Source: Phycisphaerales bacterium (GTDB lineage Bacteria; Planctomycetota; Phycisphaerae; Tepidisphaerales; Tepidisphaeraceae). From it: a stretch of DNA of 24,710 nucleotides. How positions within the stretch are numbered: position 1 is the stretch's first letter; each line of letters starts with the position of its first letter. Under the pieces are notes generated by a model. That model saw only the letters and a list, made by a program, of their open reading frames with translations, was not told the DNA's origin and searched no databases. A program made the translations under genes and the position numbers. The stretch lies in assembly GCA_028288945.1 (NCBI GenBank), contig JAQGHH010000601.1, positions 1 to 24,710 on the forward strand, in the 5' to 3' direction. Positions 12,631 to 24,489 of the stretch are shown in pieces.

Positions 12631-13049
12631 GAAAAGAATTTCCCACATCCCAATGAGGCCGACGATGATCCGCAGCCAAGCGGTCACGTCGGACAGCCCG
12701 GAACACCCGATGTTCTGTCGGGGAAGCACGCCTACACATCAGATCATCCCCCGTCGGCCCGGATATCCTGGCCAGCGAACCTTTAGCCCCCATTAGCCCT
12801 ACAGCCGGCAAGCCCGGCTTAGCCGGCCAAGCCGGTGCCGGCGACGATTCGCAAGGGTCGCAAGAGTCTCGGATATGTGGTGATCAGTCGGCTGAACAAC
12901 GTCTCGCAGGCGAGCATCGCACTTGGCGAGGAGTTCCACGTGAACACTTACGGACAGTAAAACCCGCGGCATGTGTCCAGATGGGCCAATCCGTTCAATT
13001 CCAGAAAACGGCAATGTTTTACGGCTCAAGGTTGGCAAAGGTACCGCGC

Positions 13050-13076
13050 GAGCAATGGACTGAAAATCCATGTGTC
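13050..13076 (+). pseudogene. tRNA-Phe(GAA) internal fragment (3' D-stem, anticodon arm, variable loop), inverted relative to the 13229-13274 fragment
   Basis: GAGCA-ATGGA-CTGAAAA-TCCAT-GTGTC; the 21 bp at 13056-13076 are the exact reverse complement of 13254-13274. Confidence 0.75.
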
Positions 13077-13185
13077 TCTGGTGAAAGCCACCGGATGGCA
13101 ACGATCGATTTTCGCCCTAAAAACGCGGGAATCGGGCAGGGCCGGGCGGCCGGGGCCGGCTTCGACAGACGCGGCGGCGGTTGTG

Positions 13186-13220
13186 GAAACGAAACAACCC
13201 CCGATGATTTCGGGGGTTGT
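13186..13220 (-). terminator. Terminator downstream of the tRNA-Phe 3' fragment
   Basis: 11-bp stem ACAACCCCCGA (13194-13204) / TCGGGGGTTGT (13210-13220), followed on the minus strand by TTCGTTT. Confidence 0.75.
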
Positions 13221-13228
13221 CTTCCAGA

Positions 13229-13274
13229 TGGGCAGAGCCGGGATCGAACCGGCGACACATGGATTTTCAGTCCA
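13229..13274 (-). pseudogene. tRNA-Phe(GAA) 3' half = att site (displaced tRNA fragment) of an integrated element
   Basis: Minus strand: TGGA-CTGAAAA-TCCAT-GTGTC-GCCGG-TTCGATC-CCGGC-TCTGCCC-A (anticodon arm, T-arm, acceptor 3' strand, discriminator). No D-arm or 5' acceptor strand upstream. Confidence 0.9.
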
Positions 13275-13423
13275 GTAAAAACACCGATTTTGACGCAGAA
13301 TAGCCAATGTCCAAGACGGGTCAAGACCCGAATGGACACGAAAAACGGGGGTGCGGGTGTGCAGCACACCTGCGAGCAAACTTCAGAAAAGCGTTGGTGA
13401 GGCGTACAGACCAACTGACTACA

Positions 13424-13930
13424 TCACGGAGCTTCGGCCGAACTCCCATCAGTCGGCCGGTACCTCGCTGCCAATTCGAGTACTGACTTGCTTGACGGTC
13501 CGTGACCGAGGGCGGTCAGGTCCGTGGTCGTGAAAATCTCGTGAACCGCACGGAAAAGATGGTGCCCGACAAGGGCACCGACTTTTGGAGAACCATTTAC
13601 GGCAAAGTCACCCGTATCGAAGTCCTCGATGTGCTCCGCGATGTACTGCATTATCAGGATGAATCGGGACATCTTCCACCGCGCTTCATCCTGATCCGGG
13701 CAGACCCGCTGCATGTATTTGAACACGCGGATGACGTTCCCCTCGAATGAGCCACGACGATCACCGCCGGCGCTCAGGTCATCATGATGCCGAAGAAACT
13801 CGTCGAACGGATAGGCATATGAAGTAGCGATCACGGGGGAATCGTACACCGCCTCTGCCGGACAAACAAAAGCCCCCGGAGCGGCACCCGACGTGGGCGG
13901 CACGAAGCGTGTGGACCGGTGAGAATTCAA
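13424..13930 (-). CDS. Hypothetical protein (start uncertain, probably downstream of 13930)
   Basis: Globular, helical-looking C-terminal 130 aa (ARWKMSRFILIMQYIAEH...); the N-terminal 25 aa look non-coding. Confidence 0.55.
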   Translation of the reverse strand: MNSHRSTRFVPPTSGAAPGAFVCPAEAVYDSPVIATSYAYPFDEFLRHHDDLSAGGDRRGSFEGNVIRVFKYMQRVCPDQDEARWKMSRFILIMQYIAEHIEDFDTGDFAVNGSPKVGALVGHHLFRAVHEIFTTTDLTALGHGPSSKSVLELAARYRPTDGSSAEAP

Positions 13931-13961
13931 CCCGACAGTCGGCTGCCGGTCTTGGCCTCGA

Positions 13962-15206
13962 TCAGTTTGCCTCGGGCGGTTCGTCGTCGCCGACAGGGGG
14001 GAAGTGAAAGCACAGAACCGCCAACATTACCCGGCGCGTATTGTCGTTTGGCAGATGAAATTCAAAGTCGAACCATCCGGGGTTCGGATTACCCCGTGGG
14101 GCGACGTGTGCGGCATGGTCCTTTGTCTTGTCGCGTACCTCGTCTAAGACCGGCTGAAGGTTTTTGCCCTTTACGAAACACAGAACCGCAGCTTTGGAGT
14201 CTCGCCATGTCAGATAGGAAAGTGCTTGATCGATGGTGGTGTGATATCCTTTCAATCCCTTCCAAAACTTACACTCCGCCACGAAGAGGGTCTTGCCGTC
14301 CTCCCGCACGAGGATATCGGTCTTTCCAACCCGGTTGAATGTCTCGCCGGTCACGCTTTGGAAATGCGGTGCCAACTGCATGATGAGCAGGTCGCGGAGG
14401 GCCTCCTCGCCCCTACCCGCGTAAATGCTCGGCATGCGTTCCATGCTCACGCCAAGGTCATGTAGCACCGTAAGTATTCCCCGGTAGGTTGCCTCGTCGA
14501 TTGTCGGCTCAGGTTTGTAGGCCGTCGATGGCGCTGAGGGTTTAACCACCAACGGCTTCGGCGTGATCGGTACGCTAAACGTCGCGGGGACATTGCCAGC
14601 CGGCCTTAACTTAACGCCCAAGGATTGGAGCGTATTCGTGCGGCGGAGTAGTTCCGCCCTCCTGCTCTTCACCTCTTGAGCTACCTGCTGCGGCAGCACG
14701 TTCTGATTAAACGCGTTAAGCTCGTTCGCGAGACTTTGTGCGTTGAACTGCATCTGCTCGATGCAGTTGTCGAGTTCTCGCTTTATTTCGACTGAATCGT
14801 CGCGGTAATTAGGAATCGTAAAGGTGATCGTCTCACCCTTCACCTCCACTTCCATGGTCCACATACGGCGGTGTCCCGGTGCGCACTTCAGCAAATCCCG
14901 CTCACCGACGAACGGGATGTAAAACGTGATAATTTGGCGCTTGATGGTCTGTCCGCGTTCAAACCCGCGGAAGTCGAAATCGCGCATCCGCTCAACCCGA
15001 ACTGATTCCTCGTGCTCCCCTGCGGCCATTTCGGCATAATCGAACACCAAGGGATCGACTCGGTACTTGGCAACCAGATAGTTGATGTATTCTGTTTCAT
15101 TTATGTTCAGCAGCTTGTTCTGATCCTCCGCTGACACCTCCCGCTTGATCTGCTGAAGCCGCGCGTTAACGAACTCTGATGCCTCGATTTCCGCAAAGAT
15201 ATTCAT
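13962..15206 (-). CDS. Protein with C-terminal PD-(D/E)XK restriction-endonuclease-like domain
   Basis: E..LRD...GETFNRVGKTDILVREDGKTLFVAECKFWKG (D...ExK catalytic pattern); N-terminal 250 aa of unknown fold with a coiled-coil-like stretch. Confidence 0.8.
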   Translation of the reverse strand: MNIFAEIEASEFVNARLQQIKREVSAEDQNKLLNINETEYINYLVAKYRVDPLVFDYAEMAAGEHEESVRVERMRDFDFRGFERGQTIKRQIITFYIPFVGERDLLKCAPGHRRMWTMEVEVKGETITFTIPNYRDDSVEIKRELDNCIEQMQFNAQSLANELNAFNQNVLPQQVAQEVKSRRAELLRRTNTLQSLGVKLRPAGNVPATFSVPITPKPLVVKPSAPSTAYKPEPTIDEATYRGILTVLHDLGVSMERMPSIYAGRGEEALRDLLIMQLAPHFQSVTGETFNRVGKTDILVREDGKTLFVAECKFWKGLKGYHTTIDQALSYLTWRDSKAAVLCFVKGKNLQPVLDEVRDKTKDHAAHVAPRGNPNPGWFDFEFHLPNDNTRRVMLAVLCFHFPPVGDDEPPEAN

Positions 15207-15631
15207 CCGGTTCTCCGCTGCCCAAGGCCCTCTACTGATCCCAGCGGCACGCGGGACTATGCGCCCCCGTACGGTGTGGTGATGCGGATCATATCTAAAG
15301 GAAATGCCCTACGTAAGTGCAGGGACCTTCGTATGTGCGGCTCGGTGGATGGTTTAGACGCTCCACGGCTGCTGGGGGCCGGATCGACACCATCTTAACG
15401 CTGCTTCGTCTGTTCGGCGTGGGCGGGGGCTGACAGTTCTCCAGCGGGCGGGCAGCTTTTGGTCCGCCGCGGCCGATAAAGTCTCCTGTCGGCTCTCAAC
15501 TCCGGTCGTGGTCGTGCCGACGTTCCATGATGAGCATGAATATGACATAGGGGGCGTGTGCTTGGGTTGTCAAGTCTGTACGAATCTTCATTCGGGGAGA
15601 CGGGCGGAAATCGCTTTCGGTCTCGGCAGGT

Positions 15632-16016
15632 GTGTCGATCTTCGTTGCGATCATAGCTGCGCTCGTGCTCGTTCATACCGGGTGGGAGAACATCCCGACT
15701 TATGCGGAAGTGCAATACCCCAACAAAGCAGTGCTGCATCAGGGCGGATGGTTCTTCAACGAAGATTCTGAAACTGAGAGTCTGTGAGGGAGAGTGGTAT
15801 AACGAGTGGGGGGAGGAACTGGCGGTGCCGATCGAGGGGTCGTGGAACAATCACATGGTCATTCGCTTCGCTGAGCACGGCAAGGTGTTCCGGGTCAACA
15901 AAACAGATATGACTCGGACGGAACTTCGAGTCGTGAACGGTGAATGGTCGGCGCTGTGCTCTGACGGGGAATGGGCGTCAGTCTGGAGACATGATGACAT
16001 TGACGCCGGCTACTAA
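15632..16016 (+). pseudogene. Probable frameshifted small secreted/membrane-anchored protein (frames 15632..15787 and 15702..16016)
   Basis: GTG 15632 opens MSIFVAIIAALVLVHTGWENIPTYAEVQYPNKAVLHQGGWFF. Removing one A at 15758-15759 joins it to TKILKLRVCEGEWY...DAGY. Confidence 0.45.
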
Positions 16017-16028
16017 CCGATCGGCCGA

Positions 16029-16268
16029 TCACGACGACGACTTCTTCGGCGGCGGCGCTGGCGAGGACATCGGCCTGTTGATAGGAATTTGATTGGGAAC
16101 TTGACCGGCAGGCGCAGCGCTCAACGGGTTCGCCCCATTCTCACTTCGCCTTTCCGGTGGCGCATTTTCGCTCGCTTGTATCCAACGTACACCATTTGCG
16201 CTAAGCGCCGTTCTGCTTTCAGCGGCAGGCGGTGGCGCAGGGTCTTGTTTTGGATTTTCGTCTGCCAT
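16029..16268 (-). CDS. Pro-rich peptide P3 (79 aa), ends RPMSSPAPPPKKSSS
   Basis: SD AGGAG upstream of ATG; shares the C-terminal motif and PLSAA with the neighbouring peptides. Confidence 0.8.
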   Translation of the reverse strand: MADENPKQDPAPPPAAESRTALSANGVRWIQASENAPPERRSENGANPLSAAPAGQVPNQIPINRPMSSPAPPPKKSSS

Positions 16269-16310
16269 TCTGGAATCTCCTAACGAAGAGGTTCTTCCTT
16301 TTACGACATT

Positions 16311-16508
16311 TTACTTCTTCGGCGGCGGTGCAGGGGAAGTCATCGGCTTGGTTCCCGGCGATTGATTTGTCTGCGCAGCACTTAGAGGTTTGGCCATGTT
16401 CTGAACGCGGGTATCTGGATTTATACTCCCAACGACGTTCCCCGTCTGGCAGATGGTGTGCAGGGACTTCGACGAGCGCACCACCCGCTTTGTATTTTTA
16501 CTGGCCAT
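16311..16508 (-). CDS. Pro-rich peptide P2 (65 aa), ends GTKPMTSPAPPPKK
   Basis: SD GGGGAG upstream of ATG; motif conserved at the amino-acid level with synonymous codon differences. Confidence 0.8.
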   Translation of the reverse strand: MASKNTKRVVRSSKSLHTICQTGNVVGSINPDTRVQNMAKPLSAAQTNQSPGTKPMTSPAPPPKK

Positions 16509-16532
16509 GAAAGAAGGCTCCCCTGAATTAGC

Positions 16533-17465
16533 TCAACGCTTCTTTTTCCTACGGTTTTTTACTTTTTGGGGGGCGGGGCGGGCGATGCCATCGGCTTCGT
16601 TCCCGTTGTCGCCTGCGGTGCCTGCCCATTCGCCGACTTCTGGGCCACCATTCGCGTCGGCGCTGGCCCGTTGTTGCTTTCCGTCAGCGGGGGACAATTT
16701 GCCGTTTCCGTTCGCGGGGTCGATTGATTCGGTGGAGGGTTTGGCATTGGCTGCATCCTTGTTAAACAATTCGATTAGCGGCTTCTGATTTTTCTTGATC
16801 TCGTCCTCGGTGACGGTCACTTCCCCGGTCATGTTCACAAACTCAACCGATGAAACGTCCGATGCTGGAACAAGCATTTTGTAAACCTGAATGAGTCCAA
16901 CGGCCGTTCCATCATCCAGAATCCAAGCAGGATCATCGAGAATGAAATGGCCCTTGTCGCATTCATCCGGCCACTCTTCGGGCCATCCTCTAAGTCGCCT
17001 CTCGCCATCCAGGTGGAGAATCACATATCGGTCATACCGGTGAAAGGCCGTGTACCACTGGCTTGGTGAGGCCGTCCGCCTGCTGCACGACGCCCGTTGC
17101 ATCCATTTGAAAATGGCCGTCCGCTTATGGACATTTCGGCTAACGACGATGCCAACCAAGACAGCAACGATCAGGGACCACAGAAGCCCTGAATTCGATG
17201 TCCAAGGCCCGAGCGCCAAATAATGTGCGTCCCACCGGATGTGCTCCCCGATGAGGTACATGAACCATCGTATACTTACGACGATCCCCTGAATCACCAC
17301 CGTATAAATCAGCGCCTGCACCACCCGCTCGAAAGAATTGCCCTTCGGGTGGGCGGTAAGAGTATAGACCACCGCCGCAGTCAAGAATCCGGGCAGCAAA
17401 AAATAGAAGATCGGGATCGCCTCTTTGGGCAATAGTTCCGTTGCGTTTTCTGCAAGAATGAACAT
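16533..17465 (-). CDS. DUF6338-like membrane protein (310 aa): three N-terminal TM helices, a small beta-rich domain and a low-complexity tail
   Basis: FLLPGFL...FERVVQALIYT N-terminus and YVILHLDGERRLRGWPEEWP..GHF.L..P.W...V..IEF-type C-domain recalled as DUF6338. Start set at ATG 17465; the track extension to 17747 looks non-coding. Confidence 0.75.
   Translation of the reverse strand: MFILAENATELLPKEAIPIFYFLLPGFLTAAVVYTLTAHPKGNSFERVVQALIYTVVIQGIVVSIRWFMYLIGEHIRWDAHYLALGPWTSNSGLLWSLIVAVLVGIVVSRNVHKRTAIFKWMQRASCSRRTASPSQWYTAFHRYDRYVILHLDGERRLRGWPEEWPDECDKGHFILDDPAWILDDGTAVGLIQVYKMLVPASDVSSVEFVNMTGEVTVTEDEIKKNQKPLIELFNKDAANAKPSTESIDPANGNGKLSPADGKQQRASADANGGPEVGEWAGTAGDNGNEADGIARPAPQKVKNRRKKKR
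16559..16747 (-). CDS. Pro-rich peptide P1 (62 aa), ends GTKPMASPAPPPKK; overlaps the 3' end of the DUF6338-like gene in the +1 frame
   Basis: SD AAGGA 8 nt before ATG 16747 (alternative ATG 16756); same C-terminal motif followed immediately by TAA. Confidence 0.75.
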   Translation of the reverse strand: MPNPPPNQSTPRTETANCPPLTESNNGPAPTRMVAQKSANGQAPQATTGTKPMASPAPPPKK

Positions 17466-17509
17466 GCCCACACCCTTCCCGCCGCCCACTGCCTGCAATT
17501 CTACCTTGC

Positions 17510-17539
17510 AGCTTAGCACCCGAATTGTCGCAGCGTCAA
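17510..17539 (-). promoter_or_regulatory. Sigma70-type promoter of the DUF6338/peptide operon
   Basis: Minus strand TTGACG, 18 bp, TAAGCT, with TG immediately upstream of the -10 (TGnTAAGCT). Confidence 0.5.
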
Positions 17540-17792
17540 ATTGCAAAAATGAAAATATCTTGCAACGCTGTCCGGAGGATGGTCCCCGCTCCCTGTGGGG
17601 GGCATACGGCCGGCAGATCGGGCCTAGGCGGGCAACGGGGGGCCGGGCTGATACCCTCTGTGGAAGTTGGCAGAAGGGACGGGGCGGGTGCTGCGGCTTA
17701 CGGGCTTGCGGGCGAAGAGATGCGGGCGCGGGTATGGTAGATGCCACCCAGCATCCGATATCGCTGCATGGCGCTACCGCGACGGCGGGGCG

Positions 17793-20821: not shown

Positions 20822-22351
20822 TCATTCAGCAGCAATATTGGCCAGAGATCGCCGCGCGGCGGCCCCACGCAGGAGCGAAGCCCGCTCGCCCTTCGTGACA
20901 CCGATCAGCGCGGCGGCCGCACAATGCAACACGCCGAAGGCCGCGGCATCCCCAATCAGGGCCGACCAGTCCGTCGGCGGATTCAGCCGCAGGATTACCA
21001 GGACGCCGACGCCGCTCAAGACGGCGGGGGCGGTTCCGCGCACAAGGGATTGCAGTGCCTCGGGCACCGTAACTCTGAACTCCTTTGCCGCAAACCAAAC
21101 CATGTAGGCCGTCGTCGGCAGGTTCGCCAGCAGCGTCGCGAGCATCACGCCCTGCACGCCCATCCGCCTTCCAAGCCAGATCGACAGGCCCAGGTTTATT
21201 ACGCCCTCCGCGACCGCAAGGGTCGATGTCACCCGCATCCTCCCCACGGCGGCTACGAAAATGAACGCGACATGGCCAATGCACATGAGCACGATGAACC
21301 CTGCAAGCGATGCCGTGAGGAGCATGCCCGCGTACTGCCCCGGCCCGAGCCACAGGCGGACGGTCGGGCCGTTAAACGCGATGAGTCCCACGGCCGCCGG
21401 CAGCACGATTAAGAGGTTGTACCGGTGCAGTCGGAGCATGATCGCGCCGAGTCTGTGTGATTCGTGCCGGGCATAGAGTTCGTTGATCGCCGGGGAACTA
21501 AAGTCGGGCAGTCGGGTAATGATGACCCAAAGCTGGCTACCGATGAGTTGAGTCGAGTAATACACGCTCACGGCGGCCGCACCAAAGAGGGACCCGACGA
21601 CAAGGTTGTCGGTGAAAAGGCAGAGCCGGACGGCGAGGTTGATGACCGCCAGGTGTCCGCCGTAAGAAACCAACTCTTTGAGCAGCTTCTTATCCGGTGC
21701 GCCCCACTCCGGCCGGAACTGAGGGAAAAGCTTATGAAAGCGGACCGCGCAAGCGCCCGTCAGCGCTACTTCAGCCAGCACGTTGGCCACGGTGATCCCG
21801 ACGAGTCCGAAACCTTTGATCAGGGCAAACAGGGTAAGGCCAAGGCGCAGCGCGTTGGCGGCTAATGCGGCAATGCTCGGGAACGAAAGGTCCTGGACGG
21901 CCAACAGTGCGCTGGGGGCCAGTGACCACGGGCTTCGCACCACGGTCCAGGCGGCGAGAATGACGAGGGCCAGCCGCGCTTGGCCGGCGATGGCCGGCGA
22001 AAGCTTAAACCATCTCTCAACAAATACGGTCATGATCGCGATGCTGGCGGCGCTGAGGAGGTTTGTGGCCAGTTGGAACATGCGGCCACTGGCCATGACG
22101 CTGCGGAAGCGGTGACCGCCGTCGTCTGAGCCGAATGCCTGCGGCAGATACCGCGACATGCCCGCGCCGATCCCCAGGTCGAGCAGCGCCGAATAGCCGA
22201 TCACCTGCATAAGGATGGCGTAGGTGCCGAGAACTTCTTGGCCCGCACAGCGGAGCACCACCGGTGCGACGGCGGCCGCCATCACGACCTGAATCAGCCA
22301 CGCCGCCCCGCCCGTGACCGTGCCGGAGATTGCCCGTGCCGTGCGGCTCAC
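20822..22351 (-). CDS. Polysaccharide/oligosaccharide flippase (Wzx/MOP superfamily)
   Basis: About 14 TM segments; LG.Y......IGYSALLDLGIGAGMSRY, KELVSYG, TDNLVVGSLFGAAAVSVY. GTG start overlaps the upstream stop. Confidence 0.9.
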   Translation of the reverse strand: MSRTARAISGTVTGGAAWLIQVVMAAAVAPVVLRCAGQEVLGTYAILMQVIGYSALLDLGIGAGMSRYLPQAFGSDDGGHRFRSVMASGRMFQLATNLLSAASIAIMTVFVERWFKLSPAIAGQARLALVILAAWTVVRSPWSLAPSALLAVQDLSFPSIAALAANALRLGLTLFALIKGFGLVGITVANVLAEVALTGACAVRFHKLFPQFRPEWGAPDKKLLKELVSYGGHLAVINLAVRLCLFTDNLVVGSLFGAAAVSVYYSTQLIGSQLWVIITRLPDFSSPAINELYARHESHRLGAIMLRLHRYNLLIVLPAAVGLIAFNGPTVRLWLGPGQYAGMLLTASLAGFIVLMCIGHVAFIFVAAVGRMRVTSTLAVAEGVINLGLSIWLGRRMGVQGVMLATLLANLPTTAYMVWFAAKEFRVTVPEALQSLVRGTAPAVLSGVGVLVILRLNPPTDWSALIGDAAAFGVLHCAAAALIGVTKGERASLLRGAAARRSLANIAAE

Positions 22352-23313
22352 CGGGCCACCTTTTCCAAGACAAGGAGCAGTTCGTCTTTGGGGGATCGAC
22401 CGGCCGCAAGAGTCCTCTCGATGGGCAGGAGGCTAAACCCCTCTCGGTTTTGCGCAAACGGTGTTGCCGCGGCCGTCATCATTTTGGACGCCAATTTGCC
22501 GACTTGGCTCGAAGGCTCGCCGCGGTGAAGGCGAATGCGGTGCAACTTGGCGTGCACCATGCTCGGGTAGTGTATCGATGCGGGGGCAACGTCTTTGCAT
22601 TCCACGACCCTCAGCCCGAATTTCGCGAAATACTCCGGCGGGATTTTCGTGGAAAGGAACTCGTAATGCTGATTTGGACAGGCCCAGCCCCATCGCTCAC
22701 CGGAATTTATGAATGACTTGGAGGAGGCGTTAGGCGTGAGGATCGAGATTCTGCCGCCCATTCGCAAGACTGCGGAGGCGTCGGCTAAGAAGGGGCCAAG
22801 CCGCTGAAGATGCTCCGTCACGTGAAATGCGAACGCGTTATCGTAAGTTTCACACCCACGGAGTTCGGCAAGGGACTCCACCAGCTTGCCCTCGCGTCCG
22901 CTGCCATGACGGCGTAGGATGAAGTCGCGGCACGATTGGCTCGGCTCGACAACGTCCAGCCGCATACCGAGTTTTGAAGGGACCAGGTCGGCAAAAAATC
23001 CGTACCCTGCCCCGATCTCCAGGGCCAGCGAGTTGCGAGCACCCGCCCGAACCACATGAGGGCGGACTTTTTCCAAGTAATCGAAGGCCAGAACTCGGGC
23101 CTTATGTAGCTCCCAAGGTTGCTCGGAGAAGTAGCTGGTACGGTAAAATTCTTCCAAGTCCGCGGCGGCAAATGGGGTCTTGATTTGGCAACTGAGGCAC
23201 TTCTCGCAACGGTACATATCGCCGCGACGTTGCCCCAAAGACAAATCGTAGAGCCTGACCCCCGAAGAGTTGCAGAACTCGCACAGCCACGCAGGCGATT
23301 CAGTCGAACTCAT
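22348..23313 (-). CDS. Class I SAM-dependent methyltransferase with N-terminal Cys cluster (paralog A)
   Basis: CEFC...RCEKCLSC, motif I LEIGAGYG, FHVTEHL, LTPNASS. Start set at MSSTES (23313) by alignment with paralog B; the track gives 23364. Confidence 0.88.
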   Translation of the reverse strand: MSSTESPAWLCEFCNSSGVRLYDLSLGQRRGDMYRCEKCLSCQIKTPFAAADLEEFYRTSYFSEQPWELHKARVLAFDYLEKVRPHVVRAGARNSLALEIGAGYGFFADLVPSKLGMRLDVVEPSQSCRDFILRRHGSGREGKLVESLAELRGCETYDNAFAFHVTEHLQRLGPFLADASAVLRMGGRISILTPNASSKSFINSGERWGWACPNQHYEFLSTKIPPEYFAKFGLRVVECKDVAPASIHYPSMVHAKLHRIRLHRGEPSSQVGKLASKMMTAAATPFAQNREGFSLLPIERTLAAGRSPKDELLLVLEKVAR

Positions 23314-23837
23314 TTTGTCACGGACCTCGGCGTCAAGGCCTGCCGTCTTTTCACGCCACCCCATGTGACCGCTCCTAACATACCCGATTTGCGAAGTGCG
23401 TCCAAACGGTGCCTCGCAAACCCTGCCTGGCCCTTTCCCAGTTTGTCCAGGCAGTGCAACCGTGCGATCGTGTGTGAATGAGTCCGTCGAAGCGTTTCCG
23501 TTGGCGGAGCCGCTGGGCGCGGTTCACTACGCCACCTTTTCCAAGACAAGGAGCAGTTCGTCTTTGGGGGATCGACCGGCGGTAAGGGTCCTCTCGATCG
23601 GCAGGAGGGTAATGCCCCAGCGGTTTTGGGCGAAGGCTGTTGCAGCGGCCGTCATCACTTTGGAGGCCAGCTTGCCCGCCCCGGTAAAGGGTTCACCTCG
23701 GTGAAGGCGAATGCCGTGCAACTTGGAGTGGGCCACACTCGGGTAGTGTATTGGTGCGGGGGCAACGTCTTTGCATTCCACGACCTTCAGCCCGAATTTC
23801 GCGAAATACTCCGGCGGGATTTTCGTGGAAAGGAACT
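22355..23837. repeat. Direct-repeat patches shared by the two methyltransferase genes (offset 1176 bp)
   Basis: 22355-22404 equals 23531-23580 (50/50); 22579-22661 vs 23755-23837 (82/83). Hand-aligned. Confidence 0.9.
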
Positions 23838-24489
23838 GAAAGTGCTGAGTCGGACACGCCCATCCCCATCGCTCCCCCAAGGCCAAAAAGGATTTGGACG
23901 AAGCGTTGGGCGTGAGCATCACCAACCGCCCTCCAGGGTGCAGCCTTGGCACGATATCAGTCAAGAACCCGCTGAGACGTTGGAAGTGCTCGACAACGTG
24001 GAACGAGTAAATGTTGGTGTACTTGGGCCGGGGTCCAAACTCTTTCAGCGACTTGGCAACGTGGCCGGGGTGGTTGTGAAGCCTCTCATCGTAGAATTGT
24101 CGGTATGCCTTGTTAGGCTCGACAACGTCCACGTAGAGGCCGTCCTTCCAGCGAAGCTTTAAAGAAAAAAATCCGTACTTGGAGCCAAATTCAAGGCAAC
24201 TTATTTCGTACGCGTCTTTGAGGCGTTTCACATAATACGGCTTCACCTTTCGGTAATAGTCTTCGGCGAGTAGCTGCGCCTTGTGAATCTCCCACGGTTC
24301 TGTCGAGAAGTGGGAGTTCTCGAAGGAATCGTAAACGTCGGCTTCCGGAAACGGCGTTTCGATTTGACAACTCGCACACTTCTCGCACCGGACCATCGAA
24401 CCGCGCTTCTCGCCCAGGTAGAGGTCGTAAAGAGGAACCCCCGGCGAATTACAAAATTCACATTTCCACTCGGGGGCTTCGGTCATCAT
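23527..24489 (-). CDS. Class I SAM-dependent methyltransferase with N-terminal Cys cluster (paralog B)
   Basis: CEFC...RCEKCASC, degenerate motif I LEFGSKYG, FHVVEHF, LTPNASS; C-terminal third nearly identical to paralog A. Confidence 0.88.
   Translation of the reverse strand: MMTEAPEWKCEFCNSPGVPLYDLYLGEKRGSMVRCEKCASCQIETPFPEADVYDSFENSHFSTEPWEIHKAQLLAEDYYRKVKPYYVKRLKDAYEISCLEFGSKYGFFSLKLRWKDGLYVDVVEPNKAYRQFYDERLHNHPGHVAKSLKEFGPRPKYTNIYSFHVVEHFQRLSGFLTDIVPRLHPGGRLVMLTPNASSKSFLALGERWGWACPTQHFQFLSTKIPPEYFAKFGLKVVECKDVAPAPIHYPSVAHSKLHGIRLHRGEPFTGAGKLASKVMTAAATAFAQNRWGITLLPIERTLTAGRSPKDELLLVLEKVA

Follow-up and report, generated by a model that had tools for sequence, protein, structure and literature searches.

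The DUF6338 gene at positions 17465-16533 (minus strand, 310 amino acids from the ATG) contains a complete second gene, P1, encoding a proline-rich peptide of 62 amino acids in the +1 frame (16747-16559, minus strand). The window, that is, the whole stretch of 24,710 nucleotides analysed, is an entire contig of a Phycisphaerales bacterium. The favoured explanation is that the DUF6338 (host) gene lost a stop and reads through the older peptide gene, and that this read-through has been retained because a cluster of basic residues at the C-terminus, carried on a free linker, is useful. We put the probability of this explanation at about 0.55; for this particular copy the case for selection on the tail would be drawn from one sequence.

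P1 has its own initiation signal within the host gene, a Shine-Dalgarno box AAGGA at 16760-16756 (minus strand) that precedes the ATG at 16747 by 8 nt; the homologs show the same offset. The start at 16747 is likely, since the alternative in-frame ATG at 16756 overlaps the Shine-Dalgarno box, and since 16747 lies 94 nt past a conserved VE anchor, the commonest offset in close homologs. The distance from this ATG to the host stop is 215 nt. Two paralogs follow on the minus strand: P2 (65 amino acids, 16508-16311), whose ATG lies 24 nt past the host stop and which has its own Shine-Dalgarno box at 16524-16518, and P3 (79 amino acids, 16268-16029), preceded by AGGAG at 16281-16277. All three are short proline-rich ORFs with a Shine-Dalgarno box behind a DUF6338 gene, as in operons of the Pseudomonas stutzeri type, and they share the terminal motif PM.SPAPPPKK in the peptide frame only. 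The nesting, the internal Shine-Dalgarno box and the restriction of the motif to the peptide frame had all been proposed in the initial annotation and are borne out. It had also asked whether homologs normally stop near 16760; they do not stop before the peptide, and most of them stop 8-150 nt past the peptide ATG. The first peptide is missing from annotations, gene callers having skipped it in every nested locus fetched; this absence is explained by the nesting.

The host protein matches Pfam PF19865 at residues 20-213 (E 3.9e-15; 56.4 bits against a gathering cut-off of 26.5; profile positions 12-203 of 205). The AlphaFold2 model (pLDDT 87.8) contains three membrane helices at about residues 16-114, a cytoplasmic Sm/LSm-like domain (about 129-215; 16821..17081, minus strand; Foldseek, VIA-align), a helix at 220-233 and a tail of 76 residues. 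The modelled domain has the N-terminal helix and the bent five-stranded barrel of the Sm fold, and superposes on archaeal SmAP and eukaryotic Sm chains (for 1th7_A, Z 9.6, rmsd 2.8 and 74 aligned residues; Foldseek E 2e-5). It differs from the Sm, LSm and Hfq proteins in being fused to three membrane helices, in its low identity (8-22%), and in being acidic rather than basic (13 D/E vs 6 K/R over residues 146-210). No sequence-level match to the host protein was found in the PDB, and searches of PADLOC, PHROG and the ESM Atlas yielded no informative match, either for DUF6338 or for the peptides.

The host-frame shadow of P1 (16560..16748, minus strand) is predicted to form a disordered linker, and its sequence is not conserved. 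In the nearest relative, L102 (protein P0122; 57% core identity, support 100), an orthologous peptide gene is present and the host frame has three stops within it. P1 and its L102 counterpart agree at 27/37 residues when read in the peptide frame, as against 8/35 when read in the host frame; 25 of the 39 differences between the window and L102 fall on the third position of peptide codons. In clade X, a group of nested loci without the basic end whose close sequences allow dN/dS to be estimated, this ratio is 0.14 for the peptide frame, 1.10 for the host frame and 0.09 for the core. Both comparisons indicate purifying selection on the nested frame. The host stop appears and disappears in clade X by silent changes of a proline codon.

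Since the peptide frame is conserved in identity and dN/dS and the host frame is not, P1 is, on these alignments, the older gene, and the 66-residue host linker is its shadow. The term "overprinted peptide", used in the initial annotation, thus points the wrong way: it is the host tail that is new. What stands of that proposal is that the host frame runs over an older peptide gene, with the motif under selection in the peptide frame only. The nearest relative shows the reverse of the contrary pattern it had named, a conserved host-frame tail over a broken peptide frame. An origin of the peptide de novo by overprinting was also rejected: the peptide is present family-wide, including in 21 loci that have a gap or a 4-nt overlap, and the tail is the restricted part.

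A peptide gene was found in 82 of 91 non-redundant loci: 49 peptides partly overlap the host end in the +1 frame, 12 are nested (most nested loci of this set were fetched on purpose), seven overlap by ATGA and 14 are separated by a gap. A peptide start within the 3' end of DUF6338 is a family-wide trait. The suggestion that the overlap couples translation is accordingly modified: an overlap of the start does exist as a trait of the family, and it is not special to this locus. The host frame of one locus (L108, G640) extends across two +1-frame peptides, completely over the first and over the greater part of the second.

Read-through in this copy may also be neutral, in which case a lost stop exposed the shadow frame and the purine-rich spacer behind P1 reads as lysine and arginine by chance. 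We consider this explanation unlikely but a serious competitor. A host stop requires a T before an AA, AG or GA peptide codon, and P1 has ten such junctions; by synonymous recoding, the probability of an open host frame over P1 is 0.03-0.075. The open frame alone is uncommon, not remarkable. Nesting among the overlapping peptides of unbiased loci (3/50) agrees with the neutral expectation of 2.8-3.0. The family-wide nesting rate fits chance, and by openness alone the finding would be ordinary. Two gains of the host stop in clade X also agree with neutrality. Some caution about the neutral model is in order, as the shadow frames of later peptides are open in 9 of 45 cases, and 2.6 are expected by the codon model.

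What the neutral explanation accounts for poorly is the end of the tail. The host frame continues past the P1 stop into the spacer and ends with the cluster KNRRKKKR and the host stop (16533..16559, minus strand). Seven of the eight host codons past the P1 stop encode lysine or arginine, compared with three and two in the other frames; the shuffle p-value is 0.0003, and none of 114 control flanks has six or more such residues. The run includes two CGT codons and contains no glutamate or glycine. The same frame-specific excess, with mixed CGN and AGR codons, occurs in L028, L104 and L121 (p 0.002-0.01). Basic ends were found in 39 of 80 long-tailed homologs and 8 of 239 shorter ones; for independent pairs, long tail and basic end went the same way in 4.1 pairs and the opposite way in 0.3, with a median p of 0.125 in what is an underpowered comparison. 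On the neutral side, the untranslated 3' flank of P2 is basic as well (5/8 lysine or arginine, p 0.004), yet it is not joined to the host frame. This flank is similar to that of P1 (repeat D2, 76% over 66 nt). Within 16548-16509 (minus strand), the purine run encoding the cluster could form a 7-bp pairing with a pyrimidine run just before the P2 ATG, enclosing the Shine-Dalgarno box of P2; the pairing is not stronger than in shuffled sequences.

A second indication of selection comes from a group of homologs, clade Y, delimited after inspection of the tree (SH-aLRT support 86-93). As tail words might have biased the query, the search was repeated with core domains only, and the clade was recovered. 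It has 37 members with a median core identity of 56%; 32 of the 37 have tails of at least 65 residues, and 25 have at least five lysines or arginines in the last 12 residues. Over the last ten residues, lysine and arginine account for 156 of 320 positions and glutamate and glycine for 29 of 320; an excess of this size disfavours a merely purine-rich spacer. Seven loci were examined at the DNA level, and all of them proved to be nested. For four of these, the probability that the frame would be open under neutrality was calculated as 0.04-0.29 per locus; even with a chance of 0.4 and ten effective lineages, nine open frames would have p 0.002. Purely neutral stop loss across the whole family is weakened by this clade, confirmed as it is with the core-only query. 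The overlapping part of the host frame is thus unconstrained in sequence (dN/dS 1.10), while its openness and basic end are conserved in clade Y and absent in L102. The description of the host gene as having lost a stop needs a corresponding correction: the stop was not merely lost, since a basic-ended read-through is conserved in clade Y and recurs elsewhere.

The window gene itself groups outside clade Y. Its placement alone inside the clade was rejected (p-AU 0.003), whereas a joint placement with P0122 was not (p-AU 0.28). The window gene would either have gained its tail convergently or have kept an ancient one that L102 lost. Early host stops occur in L102/P0122 and in a genome of the same family (L131, with the same peptide motif), that is, in the nearest relatives, as the neutral explanation would have it; they imply that the protein can do without the tail, which the window's own lineage has not conserved. 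The P2 shadow frame (16508-16230, -1 relative to P2) has one stop just past the start and then about 90 open codons, and P2 may have arisen by copying a P1 unit that was nested already. The basic P2 flank and this nearly open frame hint at an ancient tail with loss in L102, or at an effect of composition. No close ortholog of the window gene was found in 60 relatives by a one-protein search; a profile search matched 3 of 140 same-family genomes, none with a close ortholog, and the core-only search gave no match closer than P0122 and P0002. A DUF6338 copy in a genome of the same family (L133, G923) has two internal TGA stops and is probably a pseudogene.

The following scheme is consistent with these data. 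P1 is the first and ancestral member of the peptide array behind DUF6338 genes, and would be made from its own internal Shine-Dalgarno box; the ancestry and the box are supported by conservation, and translation of P1 is suggested by the P. stutzeri homologs. The P1 start normally overlaps the last DUF6338 codons in the +1 frame, and any host-frame stop within P1 can be removed by a change silent in P1, whereupon the host frame reads through. The product would be an Sm-like membrane protein whose linker, free in sequence, is set by P1 and whose terminal lysine/arginine cluster comes from the P1-P2 spacer. P1 would be initiated internally, while host ribosomes would cross it in the other frame and terminate 24 nt before P2. 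As disordered linkers have few sequence requirements, the P1 codons could serve as a linker at no cost, and selection would only have to keep the frame free of stops and the end basic. The cluster is probably selected at the protein level, which would keep the frame open, as the conservation in clade Y indicates and as we infer for this copy. Its most likely action would be electrostatic, through contact with the anionic membrane or with the Sm domain, which is acidic. The cluster resembles the PPPKK termini of the free peptides, and it would also shield the disordered tail from C-terminal proteolysis; C-terminal lysine and arginine are known to increase protein levels (PMC7246954). Tentatively, such loci could be repeated cases of true dual coding in a widespread bacterial module, in which the partner gene serves as a sequence-free linker carrying a cis-regulating lysine/arginine cluster beside the free PPPKK peptides, and single mutations silent in P1 toggle the state.

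The main functional rival to a protein-level role is coupling to P2. Here the frame would be kept open so that host ribosomes cross P1 and terminate by the P2 start, and the basic end would be a secondary, anti-degron adjustment. The host stop overlaps the P2 ATG (ATGA) in the clade Y loci L028, L106, L121 and L122, precedes it by 3 nt in clade X and by 24 nt here, and at least three peptides are present in each of the eight long-tailed loci, from clade Y or the window, with DNA available. However, P2 has its own Shine-Dalgarno box here, most multi-peptide loci do without read-through, and a basic run of 7-11 residues exceeds the reported effect of the last two codons (PMC7246954). We consider this explanation rather improbable.

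A programmed frameshift had been suggested in the initial annotation as a source of a host-PAPPPKK fusion in cis. A +1 shift would produce this fusion, and a -1 shift at the P1 end would give P1 a basic extension. For 189 nt both frames are indeed open, two fusions that occur naturally in frame show that a cis form is possible, and in L028 a heptamer with an A run lies where the peptide ends. However, a scan limited to -1 heptamers and local folding detected no conserved slippery heptamer in 13 loci and no significant structure nearby, nor any significant RNA fold at the start sites. In the window P1 ends in C AAA AAG, where a canonical site would read A AAA AAG, and it is preceded by a Shine-Dalgarno box of its own at the family-typical offset. 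This makes frameshifting very improbable.

An assembly or sequencing error that removed the stop or shifted the frame, a doubt raised earlier, would be conceivable in a metagenome-assembled genome (soil, 61% complete, one sample), but is practically negligible: an independent Logan assembly contig is identical to 15900-17600 without a difference or gap at depth 17.6 (being probably from the sample behind the window, it rules out a slip of the assembler, though not an allele specific to that sample), the P1 start offset agrees with the homologs, and the nested architecture recurs across dozens of independent assemblies.

In-frame C-terminal peptide fusions occur in two of about 350 homologs (P0236 and P0256, single sequences known from protein only). 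The neighbours of the modules, listed here without a background control, include integrases, restriction-modification genes, a CBASS-type cyclase and SLATT; two clade X modules (L095 and L099) lie directly behind type I restriction-modification genes, and Patatin and JAB genes flank L099 on the other side. One possibility, which we advance with considerable reserve, is that the module is island cargo resembling a toxin-antitoxin system, a putative membrane Sm ring. The ring would be restrained by labile peptides made in excess, which fits the abundant peptides and undetected host of P. stutzeri and the two in-frame fusions. The patchy distribution, the lower GC content and the defence-type neighbours, including a PDC-S54 gene, fit the role of island cargo. 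The GC content of 13000-17500 is 0.54-0.59, compared with 0.634 for the genome. No PADLOC or PHROG model matched DUF6338 as a described toxin-antitoxin or anti-phage system.

In P. stutzeri ATCC 14405 a DUF6338 gene forms an operon with SEP1, SEP5 and SEP2, and the SEP peptides were detected by mass spectrometry with 44-114 spectra and 98-100% coverage, the host being undetected (PMC10433244). As in the window, DUF6338 is followed there by three proline-rich peptides ending in PPPP-K motifs; the difference is that SEP1 starts 28 nt past the host stop, with no overlap and no long tail (PMC10433244). The SEP peptides were thought to be species-specific and possibly de novo (PMC10433244), whereas here the peptides are a family-wide partner of DUF6338. 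The pair itself is thus known from one proteomics paper (PMC10433244); the nested basic-tailed form appears to be new, and we found no description in the literature of a conserved nested basic-tailed variant or of a membrane Sm/peptide defence system.

The window locus can be compared with same-strand nested genes in which a small gene lies wholly within a larger one in a shifted frame. In the rpmH/rnpA pair the large protein gains a terminal extension, as the host does here, and the small gene is the conserved one. Known cases are rpmH in rnpA of Thermus (PMC9841429), gndA in gnd of E. coli and comS in srfA of B. subtilis (PMC11230408); conserved cases are rare in bacteria and few have been characterised (PMC11230408). 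The present locus differs in that the extension is C-terminal and arose by stop loss, with a separate Shine-Dalgarno box and start for the nested gene. Moreover, both genes belong to one module, the nested state is polymorphic in the family, and the end is basic. A model of neutral same-strand overlaps formed by stop or start changes, with phase-1 overlap upon loss of the upstream stop (PMC2542354), fits most of the family, but does not predict the retention in 32/37 members of clade Y or the frame-specific basic end.

The family spans a gap, a short overlap, nesting and in-frame fusion across hundreds of loci, so that one can trace how a gene overlap arises and is retained, and single mutations silent in P1 allow both to be tested. 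The basic tail is a clue to the role of the uncharacterised DUF6338/peptide pair, and the locus would be one of the few bacterial examples in which coding a gene within a gene seems to be useful.

A search of the window found no promoter or terminator above shuffled sequence and no whole tRNA. The PDC-S54 match in PADLOC (E 5e-127) is a gene of 414 amino acids at 13962-15206 (minus strand); located 0.8 kb downstream from the array of peptides, it is a candidate defence gene. At 22348-23364 and 23527-24489 (minus strand) there are two tandem paralogous methyltransferase-like ORFs whose C-terminal halves are nearly identical.
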